A stretch of 64,000 nucleotides of DNA from an uncultured Eubacteriales bacterium. GTDB taxonomy: Bacteria; Actinomycetota; Coriobacteriia; Anaerosomatales; PHET01. The stretch lies in the NCBI GenBank assembly GCA_964403885.1, contig CAYOHY010000007.1, positions 5,635 through 69,634 on the forward strand. Reading direction: 5' to 3'. Position 1 is the first letter of the stretch. The number at the start of each line of letters is the position of its first letter. Below are positions 2,519-61,421 of the stretch, in pieces. Position numbers and translations under genes: made by a program. The notes beneath the pieces are model-generated. The model had not been told where the DNA came from. It was given only the letters and a program-made list of their open reading frames with translations, and did not search any database.

Positions 2519-3094
2519 CTACTCGAGCCAGTCGATGATGTCGGTCTGGCGCTCGATGGGCACGAGTGGCGGATTGTCCGAGTAGCCCATGGCGATCACG
2601 GCCACGACTTGTCTGCCCTCATCGACACCGAAGGCATCGCGCAGCTCATCGCGAACCCACCACGAGAAGGTCACGTTGCACACACTGATGCCCTCATCGG
2701 TGGCCGCAAGCAGCACGTTCTCTATCGCCGCGCCCACCGAGAGCAGGGTGTTGGTGCTCTCGAAGTCATCAGAGATCATCGGTGCTGAGACGCCCACCAC
2801 GATGGGGGCGTCGCCGAGGGTGGAGTACCAGCCCACAAGGAACTCCATGCCCTCGGGGCCGAGAAGCTCAGCGAACTCAGCGAGATGGACCGTCGTCTGC
2901 GCGACCACGGTCCCCACCCTCTCGCGCACCTGGCCGGTGGCCACATGGAAGCGCCACGGCTGAGAGTTACGCGACGAAGGTGCGAGGCTTGCCGCGGACA
3001 GCACCTTGGCGACCTGCTCGCGGGAGGGCGTACCCGGGCCAAAGGTCCTCACCGACCGGCGTCGCTCGAATGCGTCCCACAGCTCCATGGTCAT
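2519..3094 (-). CDS. Nitroreductase-family protein
   Basis: RRSVRTF near the N-terminus, PSSRNSQPW, and a typical nitroreductase length. Start set at ATG 3094, which forms an ATGA overlap with the upstream glycosyltransferase stop (tcat at 3091..3094). Confidence 0.8.
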   Translation of the reverse strand: MTMELWDAFERRRSVRTFGPGTPSREQVAKVLSAASLAPSSRNSQPWRFHVATGQVRERVGTVVAQTTVHLAEFAELLGPEGMEFLVGWYSTLGDAPIVVGVSAPMISDDFESTNTLLSVGAAIENVLLAATDEGISVCNVTFSWWVRDELRDAFGVDEGRQVVAVIAMGYSDNPPLVPIERQTDIIDWLE

Positions 3095-4206
3095 CCTTCC
3101 TCGGCGATCATCGCCCGAACTCGCTCGCACACCTGCTGGCACGCGTTGTGCCGCCCCATCTCTGAAACATTGCCCCTCATCTGAGCGAGCCGCTCGGGGT
3201 GACTGGAAAGGTAGCGGACCTTGTCGATCGCATCCTCGTCATCGCGCGCCACCAAAGCGACGCCCGCGTTGACGAGCTGGTCAGCGTTGAACCTCTCCTG
3301 CCCCGCAATCGGATTATAGATGACCAGAGGCACTCCCAGCGCTAATGCTTCCGCATGGGAGGCCGACCCCATACGGGCACAGACCACATCGGCCGCCTTG
3401 ATCGAGAGTGCTCGCGACGCCGTGTCTCCCACCAGTCTCAGGGGACCGGGCGAACCCACACCCTCGAGACGACGAGCCGCGCGCTCGTCGGCCGAGACGA
3501 CCACCACTTGGATCCCGGCCGCACTCAGACCCAACGCGATCGCCGCGGCGTCGACTTCTCCGGCCGCCGCCGACATCGTGACGGTGAAACGGTCACTGAG
3601 CCCCAGCTCAGCGCGGCACCCGGTCGCCGCATGGGCCTTGGTGGTGCGCTCCGAGACGGGAATGCCCGTGACCATGATGCGGTCCCACGCGACACCGCGC
3701 ACCACCAGCTCCTCACGGACCTCTTTGGTGGGTACGAAGAACAGCCTCACGTCAGGGTGCAGCCAGGTCAGCCGAGGACTCATGTCGGTCAGCACGTGGA
3801 AGACCGGCACCCCCGCCGGCGAGACCTCGGCGCACACCGCGGCCGCAAGCGACGAGGTCGCTATGACCGCGTGAGGACGGACCCTGCCGAGCAGCGCAAC
3901 CGCACGCTCGAGTCCGCTCGACTCGAGCTCCTGCATGACGTTGCCGAACACGCAGACCTGACGGGCTCGCTCCAACGTGCCCGTCAGCGCGGGCAGGAAG
4001 GCCTCGTCATGGCCGTAGGCGATGCGAGCGAGTACCGCGGTGGCGGGCAACACCTCTTCGAAGAAGTCGATCGTCTCGGCATCACAGTGGTCAGCCAAGA
4101 CCGACCGGTGATAGCGGTACAGCGCGTCGCTTACGGAGCGTGACAGTCCGCCAAGCGTGTCGCCCACGATCAGAATACGTCGCTTGTCGGAGCGACGTCG
4201 GGGCAT
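3091..4206 (-). CDS. GT28/MGDG-synthase-like glycosyltransferase (diacylglycerol or lipid-linked sugar transferase family)
   Basis: N-terminal ILIVGDTLGG, and a C-terminal half with GSASHAEALALGVPLVIYNPIAGQERFNADQLV, resembling MurG/MGDG-synthase C-domains. ATG 4206 shares one base with the upstream TGA (TGATG). Confidence 0.75.
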   Translation of the reverse strand: MPRRRSDKRRILIVGDTLGGLSRSVSDALYRYHRSVLADHCDAETIDFFEEVLPATAVLARIAYGHDEAFLPALTGTLERARQVCVFGNVMQELESSGLERAVALLGRVRPHAVIATSSLAAAVCAEVSPAGVPVFHVLTDMSPRLTWLHPDVRLFFVPTKEVREELVVRGVAWDRIMVTGIPVSERTTKAHAATGCRAELGLSDRFTVTMSAAAGEVDAAAIALGLSAAGIQVVVVSADERAARRLEGVGSPGPLRLVGDTASRALSIKAADVVCARMGSASHAEALALGVPLVIYNPIAGQERFNADQLVNAGVALVARDDEDAIDKVRYLSSHPERLAQMRGNVSEMGRHNACQQVCERVRAMIAEEG

Positions 4207-4988
4207 CAACCCACCGCCGCTCGGTGCTTGGTGAGCCGAACCAGCGTGCCGCCCAGCGGCGAGACATCGAACTCCACGTTGTCCATGAGCGCACGCATGA
4301 ACATGACGCCGCGTCCACCGGGGGCATAGAGGTCATCGTTGCCCGCGTGTACCCCGTCGAAGCCCTGACCGGCATCCATGACCTCGAGCACGACCCGGTC
4401 TTCGAACGCGATGACGCCGATACCCACGTGCCCCTCGCCCGTGCCAGGGGATCCATGGCGCACAGCGTTCGCAAGTGCCTCGCCCAGCGCGACCTTGATG
4501 TCGAAGAGCGCGGAGTCAGGAAAGCCGAGCGGTACGATCAGATCGCACACTCGTTCCCGGGTCTCACTCAGGCGGTTCACGTCGGGAGTCATCGTGAGGT
4601 CTTCGCGCCACAGCAACGAGGCGGGCGCAAAGGGCAGCTCGAGACCTTCGAGCGCAGCTGCGACGTTTGCGGACATGCCCACGGACTCAGCGACCGATAC
4701 CAGACCTGAAAGCTCCAGAATGCGCCCCACGTCCTTGGTCGCCCCAGCCAAGACGAGACGGCCGCCCACCGGTTTGAGCATGTGATCGAGCCACACGAGA
4801 AGCCCGAGCGCCGAGCTGTCGGCATAGTCGACACAGCTCAGATCGAGCACCACGTTCCGGGAGCCGGTCTTGAGTGCGGTATCAAGCCGCTCGCGGAGTT
4901 CAGGCACCACCGCGACGTCGATATCACCGGCAAGCCGCACCACGCAGGCACGGGGTCCGACCTCTTGAGAGATCTCGAATTGCGTCAT
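4206..4988 (-). CDS. Single-chain fusion of a STAS anti-sigma-antagonist domain and an RsbW/SpoIIAB-like HATPase serine kinase domain
   Basis: The N-terminal half has the STAS pattern (VVLDLSCVDYADSSALGLLV, with a DSS phospho-serine motif). The C-terminal half has an N-box EALANAVRHG, a G1 box DAGQGFD and a G2 box GGRGVMFMRAL. The start abuts the stop of the upstream PP2C gene. Confidence 0.8.
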   Translation of the reverse strand: MTQFEISQEVGPRACVVRLAGDIDVAVVPELRERLDTALKTGSRNVVLDLSCVDYADSSALGLLVWLDHMLKPVGGRLVLAGATKDVGRILELSGLVSVAESVGMSANVAAALEGLELPFAPASLLWREDLTMTPDVNRLSETRERVCDLIVPLGFPDSALFDIKVALGEALANAVRHGSPGTGEGHVGIGVIAFEDRVVLEVMDAGQGFDGVHAGNDDLYAPGGRGVMFMRALMDNVEFDVSPLGGTLVRLTKHRAAVG

Positions 4989-7900
4989 CTATGTGCCGAA
5001 CCCTTCATGCGGGCCGTCGTGTGTCTTGACGATGGTACCCGCAATCTCGACCACCAGAACCGCCACGTCGTCTTTGAGTCCCACCCTCACAAACGACTGG
5101 ACCGCACGAAGCAGGTCCGCGGGCGCATCGATAGCGCGAATCGACGCGCCGAACACCTGATCCACCCGTTCCTCGCCAAAGAACTCGCCCTCGAACCGAC
5201 CCTCCGTCACGCCGTCGGTATAGAGGAGCACCGCGTCACCTTCACCCAACCGCACGCTCTTCTCCGCATACGCTGCGTCGATCGCGGCGCCGAGCAGCGG
5301 CCCGGTGACCCCCAGGCGCTCGATGGTACCGTCAGCACGGCGCAGTACCGCAGGCGGATGTCCGCCATCGGCCCATGCCAGCTCTCCGGAGTGCGGATCG
5401 AGGCGGCCGAGCCACGACGTGACGATGTCGCTCGCATCTCCCGATTCACCCACGAAACGGTTGAGTTGGGACATAGCCTCAGCGGGCCCCAACCCGGCGG
5501 ACACCAATGCGCGCGCCGAGTACTTGATCATCGACGTCTTGGTCGCCGCCCTGACCCCCTTGCCGCACACATCGGCGATGGTGAACCATATCGCTCCGTC
5601 GGGCGCTCTGAACAGGTCGTAGTAGTCACCGCCGATCTCGGCGTCACCACCTGCAGGCCGATACTCCGCTGCCGCCCTGATCTCGGCGAACTCGGGAAGG
5701 GCCCCCGGAAGGATCGACCTCTGAAGAGTCTGGGCCACGTCGTGCTCTCGGCTGTAGAGACTCGCAGTGTCGATCGCGAGCGCGGCCTGCGTCGCGAAGG
5801 TCTGCAGCATGTTCAGGTCCTCATCGGCGAACGCACCCGGTCGCACCGAGAAGACCATGAGCACGCCGATGGGCCGCCCGCGCGCCATGAGCGGCACTGC
5901 GAGCAGCGAGCGCAAGTCGTGACTTGCCGCAGAGCCCGCGAGCCCGTCCATGCTCGCGTGCAGGTCCCTGACCGATACCGGTTGTCCGGTCTTGAACACG
6001 TGACCGGGCAGGTCCTCACCCGGCTTGACCTCGAGGTAGAGGACCGAGGGCGGCACCGCACCGCGCGCCATCGAGGTCGCAAGCGAGCCCTTGCGTGAAT
6101 CGTGCAGCAGCAACGCGACCGAGTCGGCCGAAAGGATCTTTTGGACGACGTCGAGCACTCGGTTGAGGACGACATTGACCTGCAACGAGGAGCCCACGGC
6201 CTGGCTGATGCGGAAGATCGTCTCAAGGTTCGCGGCGCGCGTCAGGGCACGTTCGTAGAAGAACGCGTTGTCGAGTGCGAGCTCGAGCTCGTCGGCCAAC
6301 GCCGAGGCGATCCGAAGCGACTTGCCGGTGTGGTCCGCCGCGGAGAGGGCGATCATCATCACCGCACCATGATCTGTGTCGAGGCCGACGGGAACCACGA
6401 GTAGCTCCGCAGCATCGAACTCGACCAGCAAACGGTCACCCTCCGGCCCGTCTCCCAGCATGTGAACGACCGGGTTTCCATCGCCTCGGGACAACACCCT
6501 GAGGCCCGCGGCAAGGAACTCGGGGTCGCGGCCGCGAGCCGGATCGTCAGGCAGGCCAAGCGCTGCTCGGTCCACCAGCAGGATGCTTGCGAACGGCGCC
6601 GACAGCACGTCGCGGATGATCCACTCGACGACACCCAGGGCCTTGCCGAGCCCGTCCGGCCGCACCAGCTCCTCCGCGACGGCGCGCAGCGCCTCGGCCA
6701 CCTGCCGAGACGCACTCTCCTCCTCGAACAGGCGTGAGGTCTGCACTGCGACCGCAGCCTGAGCCGAGAATGTGCGCACCATCTCCCGCTCGGCCTCACT
6801 GGCCTCTTGGCCGGCGTCTCGCAAGACGACGACCACGCCGAGCGCCTCATGACCGGCGAGCAACGGGGCCGCCAATGCCGAGGAATGGGAACCCGCAAGC
6901 CCGGGCAGCTCTGCCGAGAACTCAGCGGGTGAGCCGATGAGGTCCACCGGCGAGGACGAGTACAAGGCGCGGGCCAACCAGCCCCCGACGTCGACCTTCA
7001 CCGGCTCCGCGGCCGCGAGATCGATGCCTCGCGTTCGAACCGGCGTCAGCAGTGACCCGTCGCCTTCGACCAGGTAGATCGCCGCCCCGCCGGGTCCGAC
7101 GATGTGCCCCATCGCCGAGAGGATGCCGTCGAGCACCTGGTCGACCTGTGAGGCGCTCGCGAGCAGTTGCGAAAGATCGTGCAGGGCATTGAGGCGCAGC
7201 GCGAGATCGTTGAACGCCTCAGACACTGCGCCGATCTCATCAGCGCGACCCACGGGAAGCGGCTTGACGTAGGAACCGGCCGCCGCGCTGCGCGCAGCAC
7301 CCTCAAGGTCCCGCAGAGGCCGCACGAGACGCTGCGAGACGCCCCAGGCGGCAGCGATGGCGACCACGCCGCCGAAGATCAGCACCATGACGGCGGGCGT
7401 CACCGCGCGCATCGTGTCGCGCATCGCAACTTGCGCCGGCTCGACCACCATGATGCGCCAGTCGATACCGTCAAGGCCCTGGATGTCGTTGTACTGGCCG
7501 CCCAGCGGTGTGCCGTCGACGGAGGGTACGGTCACCCGTCCACTGCCCGCCGTCACCGGCGTCCAGCGTGCGCGTGAGAGCTGCGGTGAACTCGCCCCCG
7601 AATTCGCGATGATGCTGCCGCGATCGAGAACCGCCACCGTCCGGCCGCTCAGCTGCGCTGATACCTCCCTGACGATGCCGCCCAAGAAGCCGGTGTCGAC
7701 CTTTGCCACGAGAATCACCGGGCGGCCCGCCGACGATACGAGGGTTCGGACGAACCACAGGTCCGAGCGACTCTTCGACCCGGTCCCGGCGTGCGCGATG
7801 TATCCCGTGCGCCCATGAGCGATATCGCTGAAGACGGGCTCCGAGGCGATCGATGAGATCGGCGCCGCTCCCGGCATCGATGCGACCACCGAGCCGTCGG

Positions 7901-8231
7901 GCCGAACGAGGTAGGCAGCGTCAAGAGACCCGCGCTTGCGCGCGAGCATCATCGTGAACCGTGAGGTCATCTTCTGCGGTGAGCTCTCTTGCGCCATCTG
8001 GAAGGCAACATCAGCGAGGTAGCCTTCAAGGTCGCGAAGCTCGCTCTCAGTGCGGTCCTCGATGAACTGGACCGCAAGAACGTCACGTCCTTCGGCCTTC
8101 TCAACGGAAAGCCGGGAAGTGGAGACAAGCGCCACCGCTCCCGCAGTGGTCACGGTGATTGCTCCGATGAGGAGCGTCACGCGGACGATGCGGGCGGCGA
8201 GACCCCCTGGTGTGCGCAGTTTCGCAGCCAC
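4989..8231 (-). CDS. Transmembrane sensor phosphatase: extracytoplasmic domain flanked by 2 TM helices, HAMP, multiple GAF domains, C-terminal PP2C (SpoIIE/RsbU-type)
   Basis: TM helices near residues 13-36 and 275-300. HAMP-like region RPLRDLEGAARS...ADEIGAVSEAFNDLALRL. Repeated GAF-like segments. PP2C motifs GGDYYDLF and DVCGKG. GTG start with GGAGA upstream. Confidence 0.85.
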   Translation of the reverse strand: MAAKLRTPGGLAARIVRVTLLIGAITVTTAGAVALVSTSRLSVEKAEGRDVLAVQFIEDRTESELRDLEGYLADVAFQMAQESSPQKMTSRFTMMLARKRGSLDAAYLVRPDGSVVASMPGAAPISSIASEPVFSDIAHGRTGYIAHAGTGSKSRSDLWFVRTLVSSAGRPVILVAKVDTGFLGGIVREVSAQLSGRTVAVLDRGSIIANSGASSPQLSRARWTPVTAGSGRVTVPSVDGTPLGGQYNDIQGLDGIDWRIMVVEPAQVAMRDTMRAVTPAVMVLIFGGVVAIAAAWGVSQRLVRPLRDLEGAARSAAAGSYVKPLPVGRADEIGAVSEAFNDLALRLNALHDLSQLLASASQVDQVLDGILSAMGHIVGPGGAAIYLVEGDGSLLTPVRTRGIDLAAAEPVKVDVGGWLARALYSSSPVDLIGSPAEFSAELPGLAGSHSSALAAPLLAGHEALGVVVVLRDAGQEASEAEREMVRTFSAQAAVAVQTSRLFEEESASRQVAEALRAVAEELVRPDGLGKALGVVEWIIRDVLSAPFASILLVDRAALGLPDDPARGRDPEFLAAGLRVLSRGDGNPVVHMLGDGPEGDRLLVEFDAAELLVVPVGLDTDHGAVMMIALSAADHTGKSLRIASALADELELALDNAFFYERALTRAANLETIFRISQAVGSSLQVNVVLNRVLDVVQKILSADSVALLLHDSRKGSLATSMARGAVPPSVLYLEVKPGEDLPGHVFKTGQPVSVRDLHASMDGLAGSAASHDLRSLLAVPLMARGRPIGVLMVFSVRPGAFADEDLNMLQTFATQAALAIDTASLYSREHDVAQTLQRSILPGALPEFAEIRAAAEYRPAGGDAEIGGDYYDLFRAPDGAIWFTIADVCGKGVRAATKTSMIKYSARALVSAGLGPAEAMSQLNRFVGESGDASDIVTSWLGRLDPHSGELAWADGGHPPAVLRRADGTIERLGVTGPLLGAAIDAAYAEKSVRLGEGDAVLLYTDGVTEGRFEGEFFGEERVDQVFGASIRAIDAPADLLRAVQSFVRVGLKDDVAVLVVEIAGTIVKTHDGPHEGFGT

Positions 8232-8326
8232 CCGTCTCCACCCCGTCGAGGAGCCACGCGTCCCCCGCGTGACCTGCGACTACATCGTACTGCAAGCGCC
8301 TGACACGCGATAGCGAACTGGAAGCA

Positions 8327-10369: not shown

Positions 10370-10385
10370 TGCAACACGTGTGCCA
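10370..10385 (-). promoter_or_regulatory. Sigma-54 (-24/-12) promoter, consensus match
   Basis: The minus strand reads TGGCACACGTGTTGCA, an exact TGGCAC-N5-TTGCA. It starts 5 nt after the EBP stop and ends 39 nt before the TTG start of the Zn-ribbon gene. Confidence 0.7.
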
Positions 10386-10390
10386 GCGGG

Positions 10391-11737
<1,347 letters not shown>

Positions 11738-11754: not shown

Positions 11755-13284
11755 TCAGTCCATGGAGGCGGGCAGGGTGACCGTGAACGTGGTCCCCTCC
11801 CGAGAGCTTTCCACTTCGATGTGCCCGTCATGCTCATCGATGATCCTGTGCACGATCGTGAGACCAAGCCCCGTACCCTCGGCGCGCTTGGTGAAGAAGG
11901 GGTCGAACACTTTGCTGAGGTCGTTGGGATCGATGCCGGGCCCGTCGTCGACCACCGAGACGACCACGTAGTCCTGGTCCCCGGCGGCGTGTATCGAGAT
12001 CGCTCCGCCGGTCTCATCCATCGCTTGGACCGCGTTGGTGACCAGGTTCAAGAACACCTGCTTGAGCTGATCGGGGTCTCCGGCCACCCGGGGTAGGTCT
12101 TCGGGAGCCTCCAGCGTGATGTAGACATCGGCCTGCCGAGCGAACCGGTTGGTGAACAGCACCACGTCCTCCAACACGCTCGCAAGGTCGGTGTCCACGA
12201 GCGTTGGCTTGCTCGGGCGACCGAAGTCCAGCAGCGCCTTGATGACCTTGTCGAGCCGGTCGATCTCTTGCTTGATGACCTCTGCCGCATCATGGATGCG
12301 CACCGGATCGCAGTTCGCGTCCTCGAGCAACTGCACGCTCGCGCGGATGACGCCGAGCGGGTTTCGGACCTCGTGAGCGACACCGGCCGTGAGCTCACCC
12401 ATCGCCGCCAGCCTGTCGGCCCGGATGAGTTGATCGGTGAGCGCCTTGATGTCGGATACGTCCTCGAGGGTCACGACGGCGCCAAGAACGCTTCCACCCA
12501 CCGCCCTCATCCGGGACGTGGACGCTTGCACGTGAAGCTCCGTGCCGTTGGGAGTGACCAGCGTGGCTTCGCGCAGCGCGAGAGGCATCCGGCCGGAGAG
12601 CACCTTGGCCACGTCGGCCGACAGGCCGGCGTCGTCGCGGAAGATGGCACCGATGGGCTTGGGCACCATCTCGAACTCGGACATGCCCAGCATTCGCTCG
12701 GCTGATGGGTTCGCGGTCGCAACCGAGCCGTCAGGGCCCACCGTGAGCACTCCCGAGGTGATGGAGCGCAGGATCGATGAGGTGTAGTCCTGCACGTTGA
12801 TGAGCTGGATCGCGCGCTCTTCCAGCTTGCGGTAGGCCTCCTCGAGCTGAAGCGACACCTGACGCAGATCCTGCGTCTTGGCCTCCTCGATGTCGCGGAC
12901 CGCACCAAAGAGCAGACCGATCAAGAAGTACGAAGCGACTTCGATCGCGTTGTCGAACCCCAACCCCAGCTGCGAGTTGAGCGACAGCTCCGCATGGATC
13001 ATGAACGGCACCGACGCTGCGGTCGCGGCGATGACCCCTCCCCGCTTGCCGAACACCCACGCGGCATAGATGACCGGGATGAAGTACAGGCGCCGGTAGA
13101 GGAGGTGAAGCGGGATACTGCCCGGAACCACGTTGGTGAACAGATGCAGCATGGTGATGAACACGAGCATGACAGCGATGACAGCGATGGCTCGCACGTC
13201 TCGCGAGCGTGCGGCATCGCCCACGTCCTCACCGTTGGAGCGCGGTGCAGGGCGCCGAGGCAACCCTATCCGTTCAGGCGTCAT
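11755..13284 (-). CDS. Membrane sensor histidine kinase (multi-TM N-domain, PAS, HisKA, HATPase)
   Basis: H-box AAMGELTAGVAHEVRNPL, N-box NLVTNAVQAM, G boxes DDGPGI and GTGLGL. Four or five N-terminal hydrophobic helices without a large external loop. Start set at ATG 13284, forming an ATGA overlap with the rpoN stop. Confidence 0.85.
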   Translation of the reverse strand: MTPERIGLPRRPAPRSNGEDVGDAARSRDVRAIAVIAVMLVFITMLHLFTNVVPGSIPLHLLYRRLYFIPVIYAAWVFGKRGGVIAATAASVPFMIHAELSLNSQLGLGFDNAIEVASYFLIGLLFGAVRDIEEAKTQDLRQVSLQLEEAYRKLEERAIQLINVQDYTSSILRSITSGVLTVGPDGSVATANPSAERMLGMSEFEMVPKPIGAIFRDDAGLSADVAKVLSGRMPLALREATLVTPNGTELHVQASTSRMRAVGGSVLGAVVTLEDVSDIKALTDQLIRADRLAAMGELTAGVAHEVRNPLGVIRASVQLLEDANCDPVRIHDAAEVIKQEIDRLDKVIKALLDFGRPSKPTLVDTDLASVLEDVVLFTNRFARQADVYITLEAPEDLPRVAGDPDQLKQVFLNLVTNAVQAMDETGGAISIHAAGDQDYVVVSVVDDGPGIDPNDLSKVFDPFFTKRAEGTGLGLTIVHRIIDEHDGHIEVESSREGTTFTVTLPASMD

Positions 13285-14675
13285 CGACGGCGCCTCGCCC
13301 ACGAGGGTTCGATGCCGAGCTCCTCACGGTACTTGGCGACGGTGCGGCGGGCGACGGTCACGCCCTCGTCCGACAGGATCTCGGCGAGCTTCTGATCGGA
13401 GAGTGGTTTGGCGATGTCCTCGGCTTTGACCAAGTCACGCAGCCGCTGCTTGATCGTGGTGGCGGCGACGTCCATCCCCTGCGCGGTGCGGTAGCCGCCG
13501 CTGAAGAAGTGCTTGAGCTCGAACAGTCCGTACGGCGTGGCCATGTACTTGCCGGTCACGCCTCGCGACACCGTCGACAGGTGCACACCGATCTCCACCG
13601 CCACGTCCTCGAGCCGCAGGGGCCTGAGCGGGCCCTTGCCGTCCTCGAAGAAGTCACGCTGGACGTCGATGATGATCTCGGTGATCCGGCTGACGGTGTC
13701 CTTGCGGCGATCGACATTCTTGATGAAACTCTCCGCCGATCGGATCTTGTCCTTGAGATAGCGCTTGGTCTCGTCGTCGGCGGTCGATCCGGTCTTGAGC
13801 ATGGCGCGGTAGCGCGGAGACACCCTCAACGTGGGCAGCGCCTCGTTGTTGGGGATGATGAGCCAGTCGTCGTCGAAACGCCGTAGCGTCACGTCCGGCA
13901 CGATGTAGCCTGGCGACGGACCGGGCGAGAACGCACCGGCAGGACGCGGGTTGAGAGCCTTGAGTATCTCGACGAGCCGGCGGACCTCTGCCTCATCGAC
14001 ACGGAGGGCACGAGCGACCTTGCGGAAGTGGTTCGATGCGATGTCGTCGAGATGCTCTTTCACGATACGCATGAGAAGCGGCTCGTCGATGCCCAGGAAC
14101 TCCATCTGGAGGCACATCGCCTCGGCAAGGTCACGGGCAGCGACACCGGGCGGATCGAGCTGCTGGACCGCCTTCAAGCCGGCCTCGGCAGCCTGCTCAT
14201 CGACACCCACGAGCGCTGCGACCTCGGCGAGTGAGCCCCTGAAGAATCCGTCGTGGTCGAGCGAGCCGATCACGGCTTGGGCTGCGTGCTGTGTGTCCTC
14301 ATCGATGTCAAGCAGCGCGAGCTGGTCGAGTAGATAGTCGTCAAAGCTCTGAACGCCGCCGACGAACTCCTCGGTGTTGGCCTGCTCGGCGTTTGGATCG
14401 CGAGGAGACGTGGTCTCTATCTGGTCGAGATCCTCGTACATCTCGATCCACTCGTCCCAGGATCGTTCATCCTCGGCGGAGTCCTCGGTGGGCTCTTCGC
14501 CCTCGACGGGCTCGCTGTCGGTCTCGTCGACCTCGAGGACCGGGTTCTCGAGCATCTCGACTTCGATGAGCTGCTGAAGCTCGGCGACGGGCATCGCGAG
14601 GATGTTCAGCCCCTGGTAGACCTGGGGCGAGAGTGTCACCTTCTGGCGCAGCTCGGGGCGCTGCTGGAGATCCAT
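13281..14675 (-). CDS. rpoN: RNA polymerase sigma-54 factor
   Basis: N-terminal MDLQQRPELRQKVTLSPQ (region I), an acidic region II, and a C-terminal RpoN box ARRTVAKYRE. Start at ATG 14675 with GGGAGGGGG upstream. The track ORF start (14894) is an Arg-rich extension. Confidence 0.9.
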   Translation of the reverse strand: MDLQQRPELRQKVTLSPQVYQGLNILAMPVAELQQLIEVEMLENPVLEVDETDSEPVEGEEPTEDSAEDERSWDEWIEMYEDLDQIETTSPRDPNAEQANTEEFVGGVQSFDDYLLDQLALLDIDEDTQHAAQAVIGSLDHDGFFRGSLAEVAALVGVDEQAAEAGLKAVQQLDPPGVAARDLAEAMCLQMEFLGIDEPLLMRIVKEHLDDIASNHFRKVARALRVDEAEVRRLVEILKALNPRPAGAFSPGPSPGYIVPDVTLRRFDDDWLIIPNNEALPTLRVSPRYRAMLKTGSTADDETKRYLKDKIRSAESFIKNVDRRKDTVSRITEIIIDVQRDFFEDGKGPLRPLRLEDVAVEIGVHLSTVSRGVTGKYMATPYGLFELKHFFSGGYRTAQGMDVAATTIKQRLRDLVKAEDIAKPLSDQKLAEILSDEGVTVARRTVAKYREELGIEPSWARRRR

Positions 14676-14725
14676 TGCCGCCCCCTCCCGTGGTACTCGC
14701 GGGCCGCATCGGGAGCGCGACCCTC

Positions 14726-14741
14726 TGCAAGAATCATACCA
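14726..14741 (-). promoter_or_regulatory. Promoter candidate upstream of rpoN (ambiguous: sigma-54-like TGGTAT-N5-TTGCA or extended -10 TGgTATGAT)
   Basis: The minus strand reads TGGTATGATTCTTGCA. GG-N10-GC spacing is correct, but the same bases also read as an extended -10 element (TGnTATGAT). About 50 nt upstream of the rpoN ATG. Confidence 0.35.
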
Positions 14742-14763
14742 CTTTCTGGGAGGTCTCTGACGC

Positions 14764-15732
14764 CTACTCCTGTGGAGGAATCGTGGGGAGCGGGTCCTTC
14801 TCGGGCAGCTGTATGACCGCGATCGCCGCGATGACCATCGCCCCGCCCACCAGCTGAGACACCGTGAGCGCCTCACCAAAGAGCAGGAAGGCACCCAGAC
14901 CCGCGATCACGGGCTCGACCGTCGAGGTGACCGTGGCGTTGGTGGGCGGAATGAGCCGCAACGCGACGAGGAAGGCGCCGAACGGGATGATGGTGCTCAC
15001 AACGGCCATGAACAGCACCGCTGCCGCGGTCCCGGGGTCCGCGAATGCGCTGAGCACCTTCATCGGACCCAGCACGAGAAGCCAGAACGCCGCCGCGAAC
15101 CCCAGACCGAAGACCAGCGTCGTGAATGGCCTGAACCGGCGGGCCGCCACACTGCCCATGAGGGAGTACGTCGCGAAGAACGCCGCCGAGGTCAGACCCC
15201 ACGCGATACCGGCCGGCGAGACGGCGAGCCCCTCCCCGCTCAGGGCACCGACGACGAGCGCACAGCCGCTGACCGACAGCGCCACACCCGCGGGAAGCGT
15301 CCAGGTGAGCTTGTGGCGCAAGAACAGCACGCTCACGATCAGCACGATGACCGGCGCCATGTACTCCAGCAGAATCGCGGTCGCCACGCTCGTGAGCGAG
15401 ATCGTCTTGAAGTAGGTGTAGTGCACGCCGGCAAGCCCGACCACGCCGAATACTGCGAGAAACGGTATGTCCTTGCGTTCGACACGCAAGGCGTCGCGCT
15501 GGGCGAAGAGCAGGTATGCGATGAGCAGCACGAACGCGGACAGGGCACGACCCGCGGACAGGACCGTGGGCTCGATGGTGATCCCGAGCGGAGGAAACGG
15601 CCACTGTGCGGTCTCGGGCGAGGGCTGACTGAACAGCCACTTCGCCATCAGCCCGCCACTCGCCCAGCACGTCGCAGCCAGCAGCGCGAGCCCGTATCCT
15701 TTGAGCCGGTCGGCCTTAGCTTGTGCGTGCAT
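14764..15732 (-). CDS. EamA/DMT-family transporter (10-TM)
   Basis: Two repeated 5-TM halves, each with an EamA-like pattern (ATCWASGGL..., VATAILLEYMAPV...). Overlaps the CDF gene by 17 nt. Confidence 0.8.
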   Translation of the reverse strand: MHAQAKADRLKGYGLALLAATCWASGGLMAKWLFSQPSPETAQWPFPPLGITIEPTVLSAGRALSAFVLLIAYLLFAQRDALRVERKDIPFLAVFGVVGLAGVHYTYFKTISLTSVATAILLEYMAPVIVLIVSVLFLRHKLTWTLPAGVALSVSGCALVVGALSGEGLAVSPAGIAWGLTSAAFFATYSLMGSVAARRFRPFTTLVFGLGFAAAFWLLVLGPMKVLSAFADPGTAAAVLFMAVVSTIIPFGAFLVALRLIPPTNATVTSTVEPVIAGLGAFLLFGEALTVSQLVGGAMVIAAIAVIQLPEKDPLPTIPPQE

Positions 15733-23127: not shown

Positions 23128-25293
23128 TCAGGGCAGACGCAGGGCGACAACCGCGATGTCGTCGGTGAGCAGGCCCTCGGTGAATGCCAGCACGTGCCCG
23201 AGGAGACGTGCCGGCAGCTCGTCGACGTCCGCGTCGGGGCACTGTCCGAGAAAGTCGATGAGGCGCTCATCGCCAAAGAACTCGCCGCTCGACCGACGCG
23301 CCTCGGTGATACCGTCGGTGACCAAGACGACGCGATCGCCCGGCGACAGCGTGAGCGACTCCTCGGTGAACTCCAGATCGGGGAAGGCGCCTATGACCGG
23401 CGACCCGCATGAGGGGCGCTCGATGGACCCATCGGCGCGCACGAGCACCATCGCAGGGTGCCCGGCGCAGGTGTAGGCCACCGAGCCTGAGTCCGGCTCG
23501 ATCACGAGCAGCAGGACGCTGGCGAACTCCGGGAGCTTCGCGGCGGCGGAGAGTACCTTGTTGGCCCGCTCGACGATGAGCGCCGGAGAGGTGTCGACGT
23601 AGGCGAACGCCCGCACGGTGTGCTTGACGAGCGCTGTGAGAACAGCGGCGTCGAGCCCCTTGCCCGACACGTCTCCGATGAGCACGCCCACGCGTCCGTC
23701 TGTCATGGGCACGACATCGTAGAAGTCGCCACCCACGCGCGTGCTCAGCGTCGCCGAGCGATAGAGGAAGCCTATCTCGAGCCCCGACGCGCTCGAGTCC
23801 ACGCGCAGCATGGACTCCTGGAGCGTCTCGGCGATGCGGTGCTCTGACTCGTACTCGCGGGCGCTCGTGTACGCCAGCGAGAGCGATGACGACAGCCGGC
23901 GGATGAAGCCGAGAGCGGGCTCGTCGTAGCCCGGCGCCACACCGCGGCGCCCGAACACGAGGGCTCCGAACCAGGCACCTGCCACGACCACCGGCACGAC
24001 GACCGCCTCGTCACATCCGATCCCGTCGAGCAGCCACTCCCCCGTCCCGGCAGATCGCGACACCTGGACCACCGGAAGGCTGCCGTGAACGTCTGGCACA
24101 CGATCGGGATGACCGGGCAGGGTGAGCGCTGTCACCTCGGTTCCCATGGCGTGCAGCACCTCGAAACGGTCACCCTGGTAGTCGCCGATGACGGCGACGT
24201 GTGAGTCGAGGGCCTCCGCAGCGATCTCGAGCACGGCAGGCAACGCCGAGTCGAGCTCATGTGTCGCAGCAAGGAGAGATGACGCTTCCGACAGCGCCGC
24301 ATCGAGACGCCGCGCACGCGCCGTCGCCTCGAACCGCTGGGCACCGGCTATGGCGCTCATGATGCGGTCGGCGGCCACTTGCAGCATCAGAAGCTCGCCC
24401 TCCGAGGAGAGCCGGTCGTGGGTCCACGCACACTCCAACACGCCGAAGAGATCGCCCTCGAAGTACAGCGGGACCCCCACCATGGCCCTCAGCCCGAAGT
24501 GCGCGTGGAATGGGATCGTCGTCGGCTGCTCGGTGACATCGGAGACGGCCAGCGGTTCGCCGGCGGCAGCCACCATCGACGCGAAGCCCTCATCGAGCCC
24601 CATGACGAAGTCGGCGAGGTCCGCATCGGTCCCACCGCACCATGCGGCCATGCGCCACCGCGTGGGCTCGCGCCGGAGGAACAGCACGGAGCTCGCGCCG
24701 AGAACCTCCTTCAGCGCGCCGAGCACCTCCTCGAGCAGGCCACTGACGTCGGTCCACCCGACGGTGCGGGACACGATCGTGAGCAGTCCGTCCAGCTGGC
24801 GGTTCGCGACCTCAAGATCCTCGAGAAGCGCGGACCGCTCGGCATCTCGCAATGCGCGCCCGGAGACATCCCGCACCACCGACAAAAGGTAGTCGCGGTC
24901 GTTGATCTGGAGGCCGCGAGAGCTCACCTCAGCGACAAAGGTCGACCCGTCAGCCCGCCGGTGCGCCGTCTCGAACAAAAGGCCGTCAGAGTTCGCTGTG
25001 CGCATCTGAAGCGGGAGCAGGTCAAGGGTCTCATCAGCGCGCAGGTCGCGGATGTTCAGCGTCTCGAGCACGGCCGCCGGGTGGCCATACGCGTTCTCGG
25101 CGGCGGCGTTGGCGAAGACGAGGCTTCCCGACGTGTCCATGAGTAGCACGATGTCACGGGCGTGCTCGGCCAACGCACGACCGATCGCCGCAGCGAACTC
25201 GGAGCGAGCGCCGATGCCCTCGCCCGTCGTACCAACCCATGCATCCACACCGAACTCCCTGCCTCGCGCAGCTTGGACAGCAGTGTAGCGCAC
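23128..25293 (-). CDS. Cytoplasmic PAS-GAF-GAF-PP2C (SpoIIE/RsbU-type) phosphatase
   Basis: PAS-like region (IVLLMDTSGSLVFANAAAENAYG), two GAF-like blocks, and PP2C motifs GGDFYDVV and GDVSGKG. GTG start; the exact start is uncertain. Confidence 0.85.
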   Translation of the reverse strand: MRYTAVQAARGREFGVDAWVGTTGEGIGARSEFAAAIGRALAEHARDIVLLMDTSGSLVFANAAAENAYGHPAAVLETLNIRDLRADETLDLLPLQMRTANSDGLLFETAHRRADGSTFVAEVSSRGLQINDRDYLLSVVRDVSGRALRDAERSALLEDLEVANRQLDGLLTIVSRTVGWTDVSGLLEEVLGALKEVLGASSVLFLRREPTRWRMAAWCGGTDADLADFVMGLDEGFASMVAAAGEPLAVSDVTEQPTTIPFHAHFGLRAMVGVPLYFEGDLFGVLECAWTHDRLSSEGELLMLQVAADRIMSAIAGAQRFEATARARRLDAALSEASSLLAATHELDSALPAVLEIAAEALDSHVAVIGDYQGDRFEVLHAMGTEVTALTLPGHPDRVPDVHGSLPVVQVSRSAGTGEWLLDGIGCDEAVVVPVVVAGAWFGALVFGRRGVAPGYDEPALGFIRRLSSSLSLAYTSAREYESEHRIAETLQESMLRVDSSASGLEIGFLYRSATLSTRVGGDFYDVVPMTDGRVGVLIGDVSGKGLDAAVLTALVKHTVRAFAYVDTSPALIVERANKVLSAAAKLPEFASVLLLVIEPDSGSVAYTCAGHPAMVLVRADGSIERPSCGSPVIGAFPDLEFTEESLTLSPGDRVVLVTDGITEARRSSGEFFGDERLIDFLGQCPDADVDELPARLLGHVLAFTEGLLTDDIAVVALRLP

Positions 25294-39751: not shown

Positions 39752-42700
39752 CTAGCGCCACCCTTCGAAGCTCGAGCGCAACCGGGCGCGCGTGTCGGCC
39801 ATGAGGACGCGTTGGCGCTCCCACGTCAGCGCGATGACCAGCAGCAGAAGCCCGACGATACCCAGCAGCAGCCACCAGACCTCGACGAGGACGATGAACG
39901 AACGGTACACCGCGACCGCCGACAACGCCCCCACCCCGCCGAAGAAGTAGGCGCGCGACTTGGCCGCCACGCCCCCGCCGATGGCGATGAGCGACAGTCC
40001 GAGGATCCACAGTGCGTGCCCGTTGGCCTCGGCGGCCGGTGCCGTGAGGCCCGCAACGAGCGGGATCCCCAGGCCGACCGCAGCGGCCGCGTAGTCGAGC
40101 GCCACCGGGAACGGGCGCTGCGGAGCGAGCCGTGCGCTCAGGTACGCGCAGGCGACGAGGTACAGGGCGAGCGGCGTGGTGTAGAGCTCCGTCCAGCCCA
40201 TGTCGAGCTGCCCGACCTCGATCCAACAGGCGGCCAGGACCGCGAACCCTGCGGCGTAGTAGCCGGGCTCGAAGCGCCAGCGCGCCGCCTGGGCGAAGCC
40301 GTGGACGCCCAACACGAGCGTGAGCACCGCAACGCCGTGCGCACCCACGTCGGCCCACGTGCCGAGGGGTACCCCGGCACCCAGCGCGTCGCCGGCCGAA
40401 AGCCACAGGGCCGCGGCGGTCAGCGCCGATGCGCCGAGACCCACGCACGTCAGCGCGAGCGCCGTGGTGCGGTGCGGCCCGTCCGGGCCACCCGCGGGGG
40501 TGAACGACACCGCGCCAAGCGCCACACCCGTCGCCGCGAGGGCGGCGACTGTGACCCAGGGCTGCGGGTCGAGGTAGGCAAGCCAGAAGAGCACCGACGC
40601 GTACAGCGACGCGCCGGAGACCACCATCAGCCACTCGGTGGTGACGATCGAAGCGAGCGCCCACGCCACGGCGATGATGGCGAGCGCGCCTGCGAAGTAG
40701 CCGGACTCGCTGGTGGACTGGAGCGCGAGCAGCGACCCGGCCACCGACGCCGCGACGGCGCTGTGACCGGTGAATCGCAGCTGCTTCGCCCGCACCGCGA
40801 CGCACGCGGCGGCTATCGCTGCCGCGACCGTGGCGGCACCCACCGACCACCAGCCGACCGCTTGCTCGACGGCGAGCCCGTCGGCGGCGACCTGGCCCGC
40901 CAGAGCACCCGTCAGGACCGCGAGAGCCGGTGCGGCAAGCGCCCCGAACTCGGTGGGGTCACGCCAGGCATCGACGCCGAGGATGAGCGCGGCGACCAGC
41001 GTCAGAAGCGGAGCGAACCACGACGTCGCGAGTCCTTGGTCGGCCGAGACGATGAGCGGCACGACTGCGAGGCCGATGACCGCGACGCGGCCCGACCACA
41101 CCGTGACGCGAGCCCAAAGCTCCCCGTAGCGTCCGGACAGCGAGCGGGATGACGCGATCCACACCCCGGCGAGCAGCGCGAGCGCGAGCCCGTAGACCTC
41201 GGGGCGCTGGTCCGGCAGGGCCCACGATAGGATCGACGCCAATGCGTAGAACGAGTACGCCGCGCCCGCGTAGGCGATGATCGGCTCGACACTGATCGCG
41301 GCCGCGGCGAACCAGCACGCGAGCGCTCCCAGGCTGAGCAAGGCATCGTCACGGGGTATCGACGAACCGAGCATCGCCGGCGACTCCGCCACCGCCACGG
41401 TGGCGAGCGAGACAAGCACGAGCAGGCCAAAGGCGCCCACGACACCGATGCGCCGTCCGTCAGCCGGGACCCTCGCGGAGCGCGGCACAGGCTGCGGCAG
41501 GTAGACCGCGCGTGCGACCCACGCGACGGCGAGAACGCCGACAGCGAGCACCGTGACGTTGTCGACGGCATCGAGCACCGCACACACCTGCAGCACCGTC
41601 AGCAGCTCCGCGGCCATCTTGGGCACGCCCATGAGCGGCTCCGAGCGAACCCACTCAAGCACCGAGAAGCCCAGGGCCACGAGCGCGAACGACGCCGCGA
41701 GCCACCACGACGAACCGGAGAAGAGGCCGATGCCCGCGCCCCCCAGCGTCGCCGCGACGAACACCGTCACCGCACCCCACTCGGCCGAGACCCCTGCCTG
41801 CGCGAGGAGCGGCATCTGACCCGGCTCTCGGTTGCGGCGGATGAGCCAGCCGCTCAGGACCCATGTGAGTCCTAGCACGATGAGCGCGAACACTTGGATC
41901 CGGCCAGACGCACCGAGCATCGCACACGCTTCGAGGACGAGCGACGCCTCGGCGACCATGCCCACCACCGAGAACGGCGCGCCCGCCCGCAGGATCGCGA
42001 ATCCGTGTGCGCCCAGCGCTAGCAGTGCGTAGATGCCGACGATCCACCAGGAGTCGCCGGTGGTGCCGGCGGCAAGCCAGCCCGCCACCAGCACGAGTCC
42101 CTGTGCGATCGCGGCCAGCAGGTGCGAGACCCGCTCTGCCACGACACGGGTGCGCCAGAAGACGACGCCGGCAGCAAGTGACGTCACCGCCGCGCACGCG
42201 ACCTCCGTGACGCCGGCGGTGCCGATGAAGACCAGGTCGCCGAGCAGTCCCACCCCGGCACCCGCCGCGGCGACCGGGGCGGCGTACTCGAGCACCCGCG
42301 CGAGCGAGCCAACGGTCTGAGACTCTCTCCCCCGCTCACCGGCGAGCTGCCACAGCACCGCGATACCGGCGATGCCCGCGAGCCGCACGGGTGTGGTCAC
42401 GTCGAGGCCCGCGGTGAGCAGCCACCACCAGCCGACCTGTGCGGCCGCGCCCACGACACCATAGAAGCGCTCGGCGAGCTTGACCTCGGTGAACCAGTAG
42501 ACGGCGGAGCAGACGAACAGCAACGCGGCCCACGGCAACGGACCCTCCAGCTTGAGCCCGTCGATGGCGATCCAGCCCTCGAACAGGAGCATCGCCGAAC
42601 CCACCGCGGTGAGCGCGGTGCCACCCACCTTGAGCCCGGCCTTGCGCGCCCACCAGCCGCCGGCGTAGAACCCGGCGGTCAGGGCACCCATCAGGGTGAG

Positions 42701-43126
42701 CCTGCCGGCCACACCCATGATGTCCCAGCCGATGACGGCGAAGATCGCGGCGGCCGCAACGACGAGGAACGCTCCGAGGAACGTGAGGACCGTGGTCCAC
42801 GGCACCGGCTTGCGCTCGGCGCGCTCAACGGGGCGGACGCGCGGCAGTGGCTGCGCGGAGGCGGCCTGCGGCACGCGCTGGGGTTGTACGGCTGACGGCG
42901 CGACCGGCGCCGGTGCAGCCGGCTCGGGAGCGACCGGCACCCCGCTGATGATCGCGACGAGCGACTGCCGACGCGCGAGATGGCGGCGCGACAGCGCCTC
43001 GTAGGCGGAGTAGGGAACCTCACCGCGCTCGACACCTCGCGCGAGCTCATCGAGCAGGAAGTCGATCTTGCCGATCTCGTCCCACTCGGACTGGTGTGGC
43101 CGTACGGCCATCGGTGCTCCCCCCAC
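39752..43126 (-). CDS. Giant polytopic membrane protein (about 1120 aa): short cytoplasmic N-domain, Pro/Ala-rich linker, then dozens of hydrophobic helices. Possibly DUF2339-like.
   Basis: Composition and periodic hydrophobic segments run throughout. The N-terminus is EWDEIGKIDFLLDELARGVERGEVPYSAYEALSRRHLARRQ, followed by PEPAAPAPVAPSAVQP. The start is 43126 or 43111. It begins 15 nt after the uvrC stop. No enzymatic motif was recognised. Confidence 0.7.
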   Translation of the reverse strand: MGGAPMAVRPHQSEWDEIGKIDFLLDELARGVERGEVPYSAYEALSRRHLARRQSLVAIISGVPVAPEPAAPAPVAPSAVQPQRVPQAASAQPLPRVRPVERAERKPVPWTTVLTFLGAFLVVAAAAIFAVIGWDIMGVAGRLTLMGALTAGFYAGGWWARKAGLKVGGTALTAVGSAMLLFEGWIAIDGLKLEGPLPWAALLFVCSAVYWFTEVKLAERFYGVVGAAAQVGWWWLLTAGLDVTTPVRLAGIAGIAVLWQLAGERGRESQTVGSLARVLEYAAPVAAAGAGVGLLGDLVFIGTAGVTEVACAAVTSLAAGVVFWRTRVVAERVSHLLAAIAQGLVLVAGWLAAGTTGDSWWIVGIYALLALGAHGFAILRAGAPFSVVGMVAEASLVLEACAMLGASGRIQVFALIVLGLTWVLSGWLIRRNREPGQMPLLAQAGVSAEWGAVTVFVAATLGGAGIGLFSGSSWWLAASFALVALGFSVLEWVRSEPLMGVPKMAAELLTVLQVCAVLDAVDNVTVLAVGVLAVAWVARAVYLPQPVPRSARVPADGRRIGVVGAFGLLVLVSLATVAVAESPAMLGSSIPRDDALLSLGALACWFAAAAISVEPIIAYAGAAYSFYALASILSWALPDQRPEVYGLALALLAGVWIASSRSLSGRYGELWARVTVWSGRVAVIGLAVVPLIVSADQGLATSWFAPLLTLVAALILGVDAWRDPTEFGALAAPALAVLTGALAGQVAADGLAVEQAVGWWSVGAATVAAAIAAACVAVRAKQLRFTGHSAVAASVAGSLLALQSTSESGYFAGALAIIAVAWALASIVTTEWLMVVSGASLYASVLFWLAYLDPQPWVTVAALAATGVALGAVSFTPAGGPDGPHRTTALALTCVGLGASALTAAALWLSAGDALGAGVPLGTWADVGAHGVAVLTLVLGVHGFAQAARWRFEPGYYAAGFAVLAACWIEVGQLDMGWTELYTTPLALYLVACAYLSARLAPQRPFPVALDYAAAAVGLGIPLVAGLTAPAAEANGHALWILGLSLIAIGGGVAAKSRAYFFGGVGALSAVAVYRSFIVLVEVWWLLLGIVGLLLLVIALTWERQRVLMADTRARLRSSFEGWR

Positions 43127-60884: not shown

Positions 60885-60974
60885 CCGATCACCCTACCCC
60901 AGCGAACGCCACATTCGCATCGTCGCCCCACGGCGTCGGCTACAATGTCCGCGCAGTCGACCAGGGAGGCCCTC

Positions 60975-61421
60975 ATGGAAGAGAACGGTACCCACATCCC
61001 CGTCACCTTCGAGCACTGCGACCACGTCGAGGGCCCCTTCTATCATGGAACCAAGGCCGACCTGACCACAGGCGACCTGCTCATCCCGGGCCACGGCTCC
61101 AACTTCGAGGCGGGCCGTGTCTCGAACAACATCTACTTCTCGGCGACCTTGGATGCCGCCATCTGGGGAGCGGAGCTCGCCAAGGGCGAAGGTGCCGGCC
61201 GAATCTATGTGATCGAACCCACCGGTCCGTTCGAGGACGACCCCAACCTGACCAACAAGCGCTTTCCGGGCAACCCCACCCGGTCCTATCGGACCAAAGA
61301 CCCCCTGCGCATCGTGGGAGAGGTCGAGCACTGGGAAGGTCATCCCCCGGAGGTCCTCCAGGCGATGCTCGATCATCTGGAGCAGCTGCGCCTGCAAGGC
61401 CTCGCGACCATCGAGGACTGA
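60975..61421 (+). CDS. arr: NAD+--rifampin ADP-ribosyltransferase
   Basis: GPFYHGTKADL...IYFSATLDAAIWGAELA...YVIEPTGPFEDDPNLTNKRFPGNPTRSYRTKDPLRIVGEVEHWEGH closely follows the Arr-ms/Arr-2 sequences as recalled. Start set at ATG 60975 (GGGAGG 7 nt upstream) rather than 60945. Confidence 0.85.
   Translation: MEENGTHIPVTFEHCDHVEGPFYHGTKADLTTGDLLIPGHGSNFEAGRVSNNIYFSATLDAAIWGAELAKGEGAGRIYVIEPTGPFEDDPNLTNKRFPGNPTRSYRTKDPLRIVGEVEHWEGHPPEVLQAMLDHLEQLRLQGLATIED

Follow-up and report, generated by a model that had tools for sequence, protein, structure and literature searches.

The window, a 64,000-nucleotide stretch of contig CAYOHY010000007.1 from an uncultured bacterium of the Coriobacteriia, carries at 4206..4988 (-) an open reading frame (ORF) with an ATG start whose 260-aa product joins the two central components of a partner-switching module, a STAS domain (anti-sigma-factor antagonist) and a serine kinase domain of the RsbW/SpoIIAB type, and it is this fused gene, together with the sensor phosphatase encoded next to it, that we describe here. 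The fusion had been proposed in an earlier note on this DNA, and the ORF and both Pfam families agree with it. The STAS domain is encoded at 4641..4988 (-) and takes up residues ~1-116, with the PF01740 match at residues 9-100 (E 7.3e-20, 71.2 bits in comparison to a cutoff of 22.6) and a further STAS_2 match in the same half (E 1.7e-17). It is followed by the kinase (anti-sigma) domain of the GHKL family, encoded at 4224..4616 (-) and covering residues ~125-255, for which HATPase_c_2, PF13581, was matched at residues 135-254 (E 2.2e-20, 73.4 bits in comparison to a cutoff of 27.4), so the domain scan that the note had suggested as a check gave STAS and then HATPase_c_2, both above the Pfam cutoffs. 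The N-terminal half also passed the NCBIfam model of the anti-anti-sigma superfamily, TIGR00377 (69 against a cutoff of 53.45), and the kinase half gave sub-threshold NCBIfam matches to SpoIIAB, RsbW and RsbA. Judged as sequence matches, these assignments are far beyond chance. The STAS domain is not a stand-alone protein of ~110 aa but is joined to a kinase domain of 135 aa in one ORF.

The residues required of a phospho-switch were located in both halves, as the note had predicted when it placed a phosphorylatable DSS motif in a STAS domain at residues ~1-105 and a complete set of N, G1 and G2 boxes at residues ~125-255. The motif DYADSSALGLL occupies residues 54-64, and within D57-S58-S59 the predicted phospho-acceptor Ser58 (codon at 4815..4817 (-)) aligns with the phospho-acceptor Ser58 of SpoIIAA, a position at which the SpoIIAA chain 1tid_B has Ala. 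The kinase half contains the N-box (E170/N174/H178), the G1 box (D205-x-G207-x-G209) and the G2 box (G225-R226-G227), and its R144 aligns with R20 of SpoIIAB, two residues ahead of SpoIIAB T22. In SpoIIAB, R20 touches both the antagonist and the sigma factor. When a profile of the family was compared with the PDB, residues 5-101 matched SpoIIAA best (1th8_B, E 1.7e-14), residues 130-258 matched RsbW (6m36_A) and SpoIIAB (1til, 1l0o, 1th8), and the kinase domain of Rv1364c (3ke6_A) was detectably homologous (E 2e-5). The AlphaFold2 model of the fused protein (mean predicted local distance difference test score, pLDDT, 81.3; predicted template modelling score, pTM, 0.67) contains both folds, and since its beta-alpha STAS-like fold runs through a helix at residues 109-116, the true linker would be only ~8 residues long (117-124). 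A Foldseek search with this model returned RsbV, RsbW, SpoIIAA and SpoIIAB chains, and the top match to the full-length model was LvrC (PDB 9qih), at a root-mean-square deviation of ~20 A.

To place the gene in its family, homologues were collected by a word-indexed protein search, which returned 850 proteins at E <= 1e-5. The best 120 of the 850 were inspected and were found to be 236-287 aa long and 63-100% identical to the query (one of them identical), with both Pfam domains present in 120 of 120, and the same picture of length and architecture was obtained from a profile search with 933 proteins at E <= 1e-10. Those homologues from the two protein searches that carry an organism name come from metagenome-assembled genomes of Coriobacteriia, and automated annotation labels them inconsistently, the same architecture being called 'anti-sigma factor antagonist', 'anti-anti-sigma factor', 'RsbW kinase' or 'ATP-binding protein'. 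An alignment of 46 homologues with 62-73% identity showed that D57, S58, S59, R144, E170, N174, D205, G207, G225, R226 and G227 are invariant in all 46, as is W127 at the junction between the domains. A contig scan with the fused protein as query added no more than two distant matches, both to a kinase alone: L003, and L004, the latter being a stand-alone RsbW-like ORF of 160 aa. The fused protein belongs to a large family that is specific to Coriobacteriia and has a membrane PP2C as its conserved partner.

Outside this family the same design was found to be common. An exhaustive HMMER search of 1.84 billion cluster representatives (50% identity) gave 14,027 matches at E <= 1e-3 and 377 at E <= 1e-10. 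Among the best 150 representatives, 102 are 225-330 aa long, and most of these align with the query from end to end at 27-56% identity; the order STAS followed by kinase was seen in ~95 of the best 150 and the reverse order in ~6 (e.g., P0189, P0219, P0227). In the 102 fused-type representatives, 81 have Ser and 4 have Thr at position 58 (85 of 102), and R144 is kept in 92, E170 in 98, N174 in 97 and G225 in 98, showing that the acceptor and the catalytic site are conserved together. Cluster look-ups of two distant fused representatives gave Armatimonadota as the sole organism name, and the contexts of distant fused genes differ from one another: that of L008 (Armatimonadota) stands alone, that of L009/L010 has a SpoIIE gene two genes upstream, and that of L011 lies near dnaG-rpoD. 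The STAS-kinase fusion is therefore a recurrent, widespread design, and the rarity implied by the note, which had set the fused protein against the usual separate proteins, is not borne out. Fused STAS/kinase proteins are in fact already documented by SipA (2023), CapK (2026) and Rv1364c, and the gene described here adds a member.

The gene immediately upstream, at 4989..8231 (-), encodes a membrane sensor phosphatase of 1080 aa with HAMP, GAF, GAF and PP2C (877-1063) domains, as found by Pfam and hydropathy. Based on hydropathy, a first transmembrane segment (15-38) is followed by an extracytoplasmic region of ~235 aa and a second transmembrane segment (274-300). The SpoIIE/PP2C domain was matched by Pfam with E 3e-43 and contains all four Asp motifs of the PPM family (GGDYYD867, DVCGKG887, TDGVTE1005 and DDVA1054), and the HAMP region weakly resembles SiaA (NCBIfam). 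A class of PP2C phosphatases whose inputs are GAF or HAMP domains and whose linkers are coiled coils has been described (PMC12143880). The TAG stop of the phosphatase gene (4989-4991) abuts the ATG of the fused gene, which is the stop-to-start contact that the note had reported, and a HAMP-GAF-GAF-PP2C gene of 1070-1080 aa lies directly upstream of the fused gene in seven of seven long contigs, down to 53% identity. Because neither domain of the fused protein, used as a tblastn query, found another STAS or RsbW-like gene in the 64-kb window, the adjacent phosphatase has no other obvious substrate nearby.

A second PP2C, which is cytoplasmic and has the architecture PAS-GAF-SpoIIE (721 aa; Pfam SpoIIE E 4.5e-49), is encoded at 23128..25293 (-) and also keeps all the catalytic Asp motifs. 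In a 43%-identical relative (L013/L014), the large PP2C is missing and the fused gene lies directly between DsbD and haloacid dehalogenase (HAD) genes; the only PP2C near the fused gene there is a GAF-SpoIIE gene 4 kb upstream, the counterpart of which in the window is 23128..25293. The second PP2C may act on the same STAS serine, and since the window contains no STAS gene besides the fused one, both phosphatases may have a single substrate between them. RsbU and RsbP likewise have RsbV as their common substrate.

The surroundings of the gene were compared in seven long contigs (the window, L005, L006, L007, L015, L016 and L017; 53-100% identity), which share the order rpoN, PAS histidine kinase, sigma-54 activator, small Zn-ribbon protein, HMA, (cupredoxin), DsbD_TM, HAMP-GAF-GAF-PP2C, fused gene and HAD hydrolase. 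The intergenic region between the DsbD and PP2C genes contains a single conserved block, apart from which it is 44% identical; this block, C(T/A)TGCAGTACGAT, lies at window 8284-8296 (-), in which T47, A48, A51 and T52 are invariant in seven of seven loci. The block includes a -10-like box, TACGAT (TAnnAT), at 8284..8289 (-), 53 nt ahead of the start codon of the PP2C gene, which is probably the -10 box of an own promoter of the PP2C/fused-gene operon. On the downstream side, a glycosyltransferase resembling monogalactosyldiacylglycerol (MGDG) synthase (3091..4209 (-); Pfam, NCBIfam) has a start that overlaps the stop of the fused gene (TGATG or TTGATG). With a nitroreductase gene it makes up a variable insert, 2519-4209 (-), between the fused gene and the HAD hydrolase gene: both genes are present in the window, L005 and L015, the nitroreductase alone in L016 and L017, and neither in L006 and L007. 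The glycosyltransferase was thus found in four of eight loci (the window, L001, L005 and L015, with L001 carrying the identical protein) and is absent from L006, L007, L016 and L017, four of the seven distinct family loci, and an obligate role as partner or output was ruled out by this absence.

No gene of the sigma-70 family was found in the window, either by a Pfam scan of essentially all major ORFs or by tblastn with a primary sigma factor, and none flanks the fused gene in L005-L007 or L015-L017. The note's statement that no sigma factor gene lies nearby stands, across the 64 kb, for the sigma-70 family, but it had overlooked rpoN, the sigma-54 gene at 13281..14894 (-), which lies 8 kb upstream of the fused gene in conserved synteny and was identified by its translation and by the Sigma54_AID, CBD and DBD domains in the syntenic genes of L005, L006, L015, L016 and L017. 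The mechanically called rpoN ORF has 537 aa in comparison to 463-464 aa in the syntenic homologues, and the true start is therefore probably near 14675, at the Met of MDLQQRPELRQK. After rpoN come a PAS histidine kinase gene (11755..13302 (-)), the ORF of which overlaps that of rpoN by 22 nt, and a sigma-54 activator gene (10391..11737 (-)). In L007 (813-3737), rpoN and the PAS histidine kinase gene were called as one product of 974 aa, and they are separate, slightly overlapping genes in L005, L006, L015, L016 and L017, so the joining in L007 is probably a frameshift or a lost stop in that assembly.

Just after the activator gene lies a consensus sigma-54 promoter, TGGCACACGTGTTGCA, at 10370..10385 (-), the only zero-mismatch match in the window. 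The form TGGCA(C/T)A-N4-TTGCA is conserved in seven of seven Coriobacteriia loci (e.g., L005 4646-4661, L007 5103-5118 and L017 4465-4479), and the promoter precedes the genes for the Zn-ribbon membrane protein, HMA, the cupredoxin-like protein and DsbD_TM, which suggests a putative sigma-54-controlled metal or redox envelope operon after the activator gene. RsbW-type proteins are not known to bind targets other than sigma-70-family factors. Because of this, and because the PP2C gene has its own TAnnAT box, the link with sigma-54 is treated as one of neighbourhood only, and sigma-54 as a target of the fused protein was rejected as unsupported.

Two further observations concern the window at a distance from these genes. 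An ORF of 1124 aa at 39752-43126 (-), with a GC content at third codon positions of 0.88 and no Pfam match at E <= 1e-5, sits where the window is richest in GC (72%), a stretch that also has a strong AT skew (0.36). A rifampin ADP-ribosyltransferase gene (Arr-ms, E 1e-48) is found at 60945-61421 (+) among small genes of mixed orientation.

What the sequences show directly is the identity of the domains, the integrity of the catalytic and acceptor residues, and the conservation both of the fusion and of its place beside the PP2C gene. On these grounds we consider, with moderate confidence, that the fused protein is probably a partner-switch core in one polypeptide, in which a short linker ties an RsbV/SpoIIAA-type STAS domain to a serine kinase of the RsbW/SpoIIAB type, the STAS domain being reset by the adjacent PP2C. 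A tethered substrate and kinase is the natural reading since the fusion is conserved, the phospho-Ser and the kinase motifs are intact and the PP2C gene is tightly coupled, and by analogy it would match experimental data on the self-phosphorylation of Rv1364c and on the contact between the domains of SipA. The observation in the earlier note is confirmed, and its interpretation is partly supported, the best reading being that kinase and substrate are tethered and that the adjacent PP2C resets them.

Kinase activity, docking and the identity of the target are inferred, and the cycle could run as follows. With Ser58 unphosphorylated, the STAS domain would dock on the kinase domain, either in its own chain or across a dimer, and would cover a surface to which Arg144 (the counterpart of SpoIIAB Arg20) belongs, so that the kinase domain could not hold its target. 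Phosphorylation of Ser58 by the kinase domain with ATP would release the STAS domain and leave the kinase domain free to sequester the target. Upon a signal, the HAMP-GAF-GAF-PP2C protein, and possibly also the PAS-GAF-PP2C protein, would dephosphorylate Ser58, by which the STAS domain is re-armed and the target freed. The identity of this target is the least certain step of the model; it would most likely be a factor of the sigma-70 family (group 3, SigB/SigF-like) encoded elsewhere in the genome.

Several characterised systems resemble this proposed arrangement. In sequence and structure the closest matches are SpoIIAA/SpoIIAB and RsbV/RsbW of Bacillus (with SpoIIE, RsbU or RsbP), with which the fused protein shares the acceptor Ser, the Arg20 equivalent, the N, G1 and G2 boxes and a PP2C input, whereas the Bacillus proteins are separate polypeptides encoded beside their sigma factor and the protein described here is fused, has no adjacent sigma gene and misses the equivalog thresholds. 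In domain layout it is likened, by description and not by sequence, to SipA, which also has an N-terminal STAS and a C-terminal RsbW-like domain in one protein of ~250 aa. SipA of Actinoplanes missouriensis (AMIS_54230; 243 aa, STAS 6-103 and RsbW-like 158-239) is the anti-sigma factor of SsdA, and in two-hybrid assays its STAS domain interacts with its RsbW-like domain, the STAS domain also weakening sigma-factor binding; its orthologues are mostly from Micromonosporaceae, plus one strain of Streptosporangiaceae (Nonomuraea) (PMC10733313). SipA is encoded next to its target SsdA, which bears a C-terminal STAS domain, whereas the fused gene has no adjacent sigma gene, and with neither a second STAS gene nor a sigma-70 gene in the window there is no ssdA-type sigma gene with a C-terminal STAS domain in it. 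Another difference is that no PP2C partner or phosphorylation has been reported for SipA, while here a sensor PP2C is a conserved neighbour and the residues of the phospho-relay are intact.

A kinase and its STAS substrate in one chain are also found in Rv1364c of Mycobacterium tuberculosis, a PAS-PP2C-GHKL kinase-STAS protein that is reported to phosphorylate and dephosphorylate its own STAS Ser and to bind SigF in vitro (PMC10950880, PMC7693655). As described there, the phosphatase of Rv1364c is in the same polypeptide and the kinase precedes the STAS domain, whereas in the window the PP2C is a separate membrane ORF with HAMP and GAF domains and the STAS domain comes first. LvrC of Leptospira, a Rec-regulated RsbW-like anti-sigma protein (PMC13269768), likewise joins an N-terminal phospho-acceptor domain to an RsbW-like (Bergerat) anti-sigma domain, but its regulatory domain is a receiver, phosphorylated on Asp by a histidine kinase, and not STAS, and the domain arrangement differs.

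Three points weigh against the proposed tethered anti-sigma switch. The kinase half missed the equivalog cutoffs for SpoIIAB and RsbW, with 50.6 in comparison to 135 for TIGR01925, 46.4 in comparison to 145 for NF003144 and 41.5 in comparison to 155 for TIGR01924. The anti-sigma role is unsupported by context, because there is no sigma-70-family gene in the window or beside the gene in the related loci. In addition, a simple competition model may not apply, because the domains of SipA are modelled in constitutive contact, on the face opposite the target-binding one.

A rival reading is a partner switch with a non-sigma output, in which the released partner or the unphosphorylated STAS domain controls an enzyme or an envelope process; a candidate would be the MGDG-synthase-like glycosyltransferase, which is translationally coupled to the fused gene, or else the HAD/phosphodiesterase genes downstream of it. 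Partner switches without a sigma output are represented by All4160/HenR, SypA/SypE, HsbA and SiaABCD, and the weak likeness of the phosphatase HAMP region to SiaA is in favour of such an output, as are the lack of a sigma-70-family gene in the window, the overlap of the glycosyltransferase start with the stop of the fused gene and the order DsbD, fused gene, HAD, which is kept even in the 43%-identical relative. Direct regulation of a glycosyltransferase by partner switches has also been reported (bioRxiv 10.64898/2026.04.08.717354). However, a glycosyltransferase that is missing in four of seven distinct loci cannot be the obligate target, and the kinase domain, which retains the counterpart of SpoIIAB Arg20, resembles RsbW and SpoIIAB most, so that we regard a non-sigma output as rather unlikely. 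In a more elaborate version, to which we give a low probability, the fused protein and its membrane PP2C would make up a self-contained phospho-switch with an output other than sigma-70; two different PP2C sensors would act on the single tethered serine, and the switch might control envelope or glycolipid biosynthesis or be linked to the conserved sigma-54 regulon beside it.

The internal STAS domain could instead be only a regulatory or ligand-binding module, with the real substrate a separate STAS protein encoded elsewhere. The precedent is CapK, an HTH-STAS-GHKL kinase whose substrate is another protein, the STAS repressor CapS, and in which the groove between the STAS and GHKL domains binds the activating ligand (PMC13373217). 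CapK and the fused protein both carry STAS ahead of a GHKL serine kinase in a single polypeptide, but the extra helix-turn-helix (HTH) domain of CapK, its separate repressor substrate of STAS-winged HTH architecture, its activation by single-stranded DNA and its position flanking phage-defence operons do not apply here: Pfam gave no HTH match in the fused protein, and the neighbours are PP2C, glycosyltransferase, nitroreductase and HAD hydrolase genes, with no CapS-like gene or defence operon among them. Furthermore, D57-S58-S59 is invariant in the internal STAS domain, the window has no second STAS gene, and the conserved neighbour is a PP2C predicted to be active, implying a phospho-Ser substrate in this operon, which together make a purely regulatory STAS domain improbable.

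Since the gene adjoins a PP2C gene, and stressosome STAS proteins are known to sequester RsbT, which activates RsbU (PMC12143880), one could also suppose that the kinase domain, once freed from STAS, binds and activates the adjacent PP2C with no sigma sequestration, but this is very improbable as the inputs of the PP2C are HAMP and GAF domains and not the N-terminal domain of RsbU, and the kinase best matches RsbW and SpoIIAB, with no RsbT model or structure matched. Finally, a frameshift or missed stop merging two genes, which the note had named as one way in which the fusion could fail, is excluded with near certainty, because the same architecture is encoded by a single ORF of ~260 aa in more than 900 homologues, which come from independent assemblies, and the junction region, including W127, is conserved; nothing was found in favour of such an artefact, and of the few short representatives with one half that exist (P0129, P0135, P0137, P0139 and P0144), at least one (P0144) is visibly a truncated fused protein, and a look-up of P0139, possibly a split form with STAS alone, returned no record.

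The question of the output partner is one that this gene has in common with many orphan partner-switch modules. If the tethered, PP2C-reset switch proposed above is true, the family of Coriobacteriia would possess a minimal partner switch of two genes, a sensor PP2C and a self-antagonised kinase, in which the ratio of kinase to substrate is fixed at 1:1, and it would be convenient for studying the effects of tethering on partner-switching kinetics.

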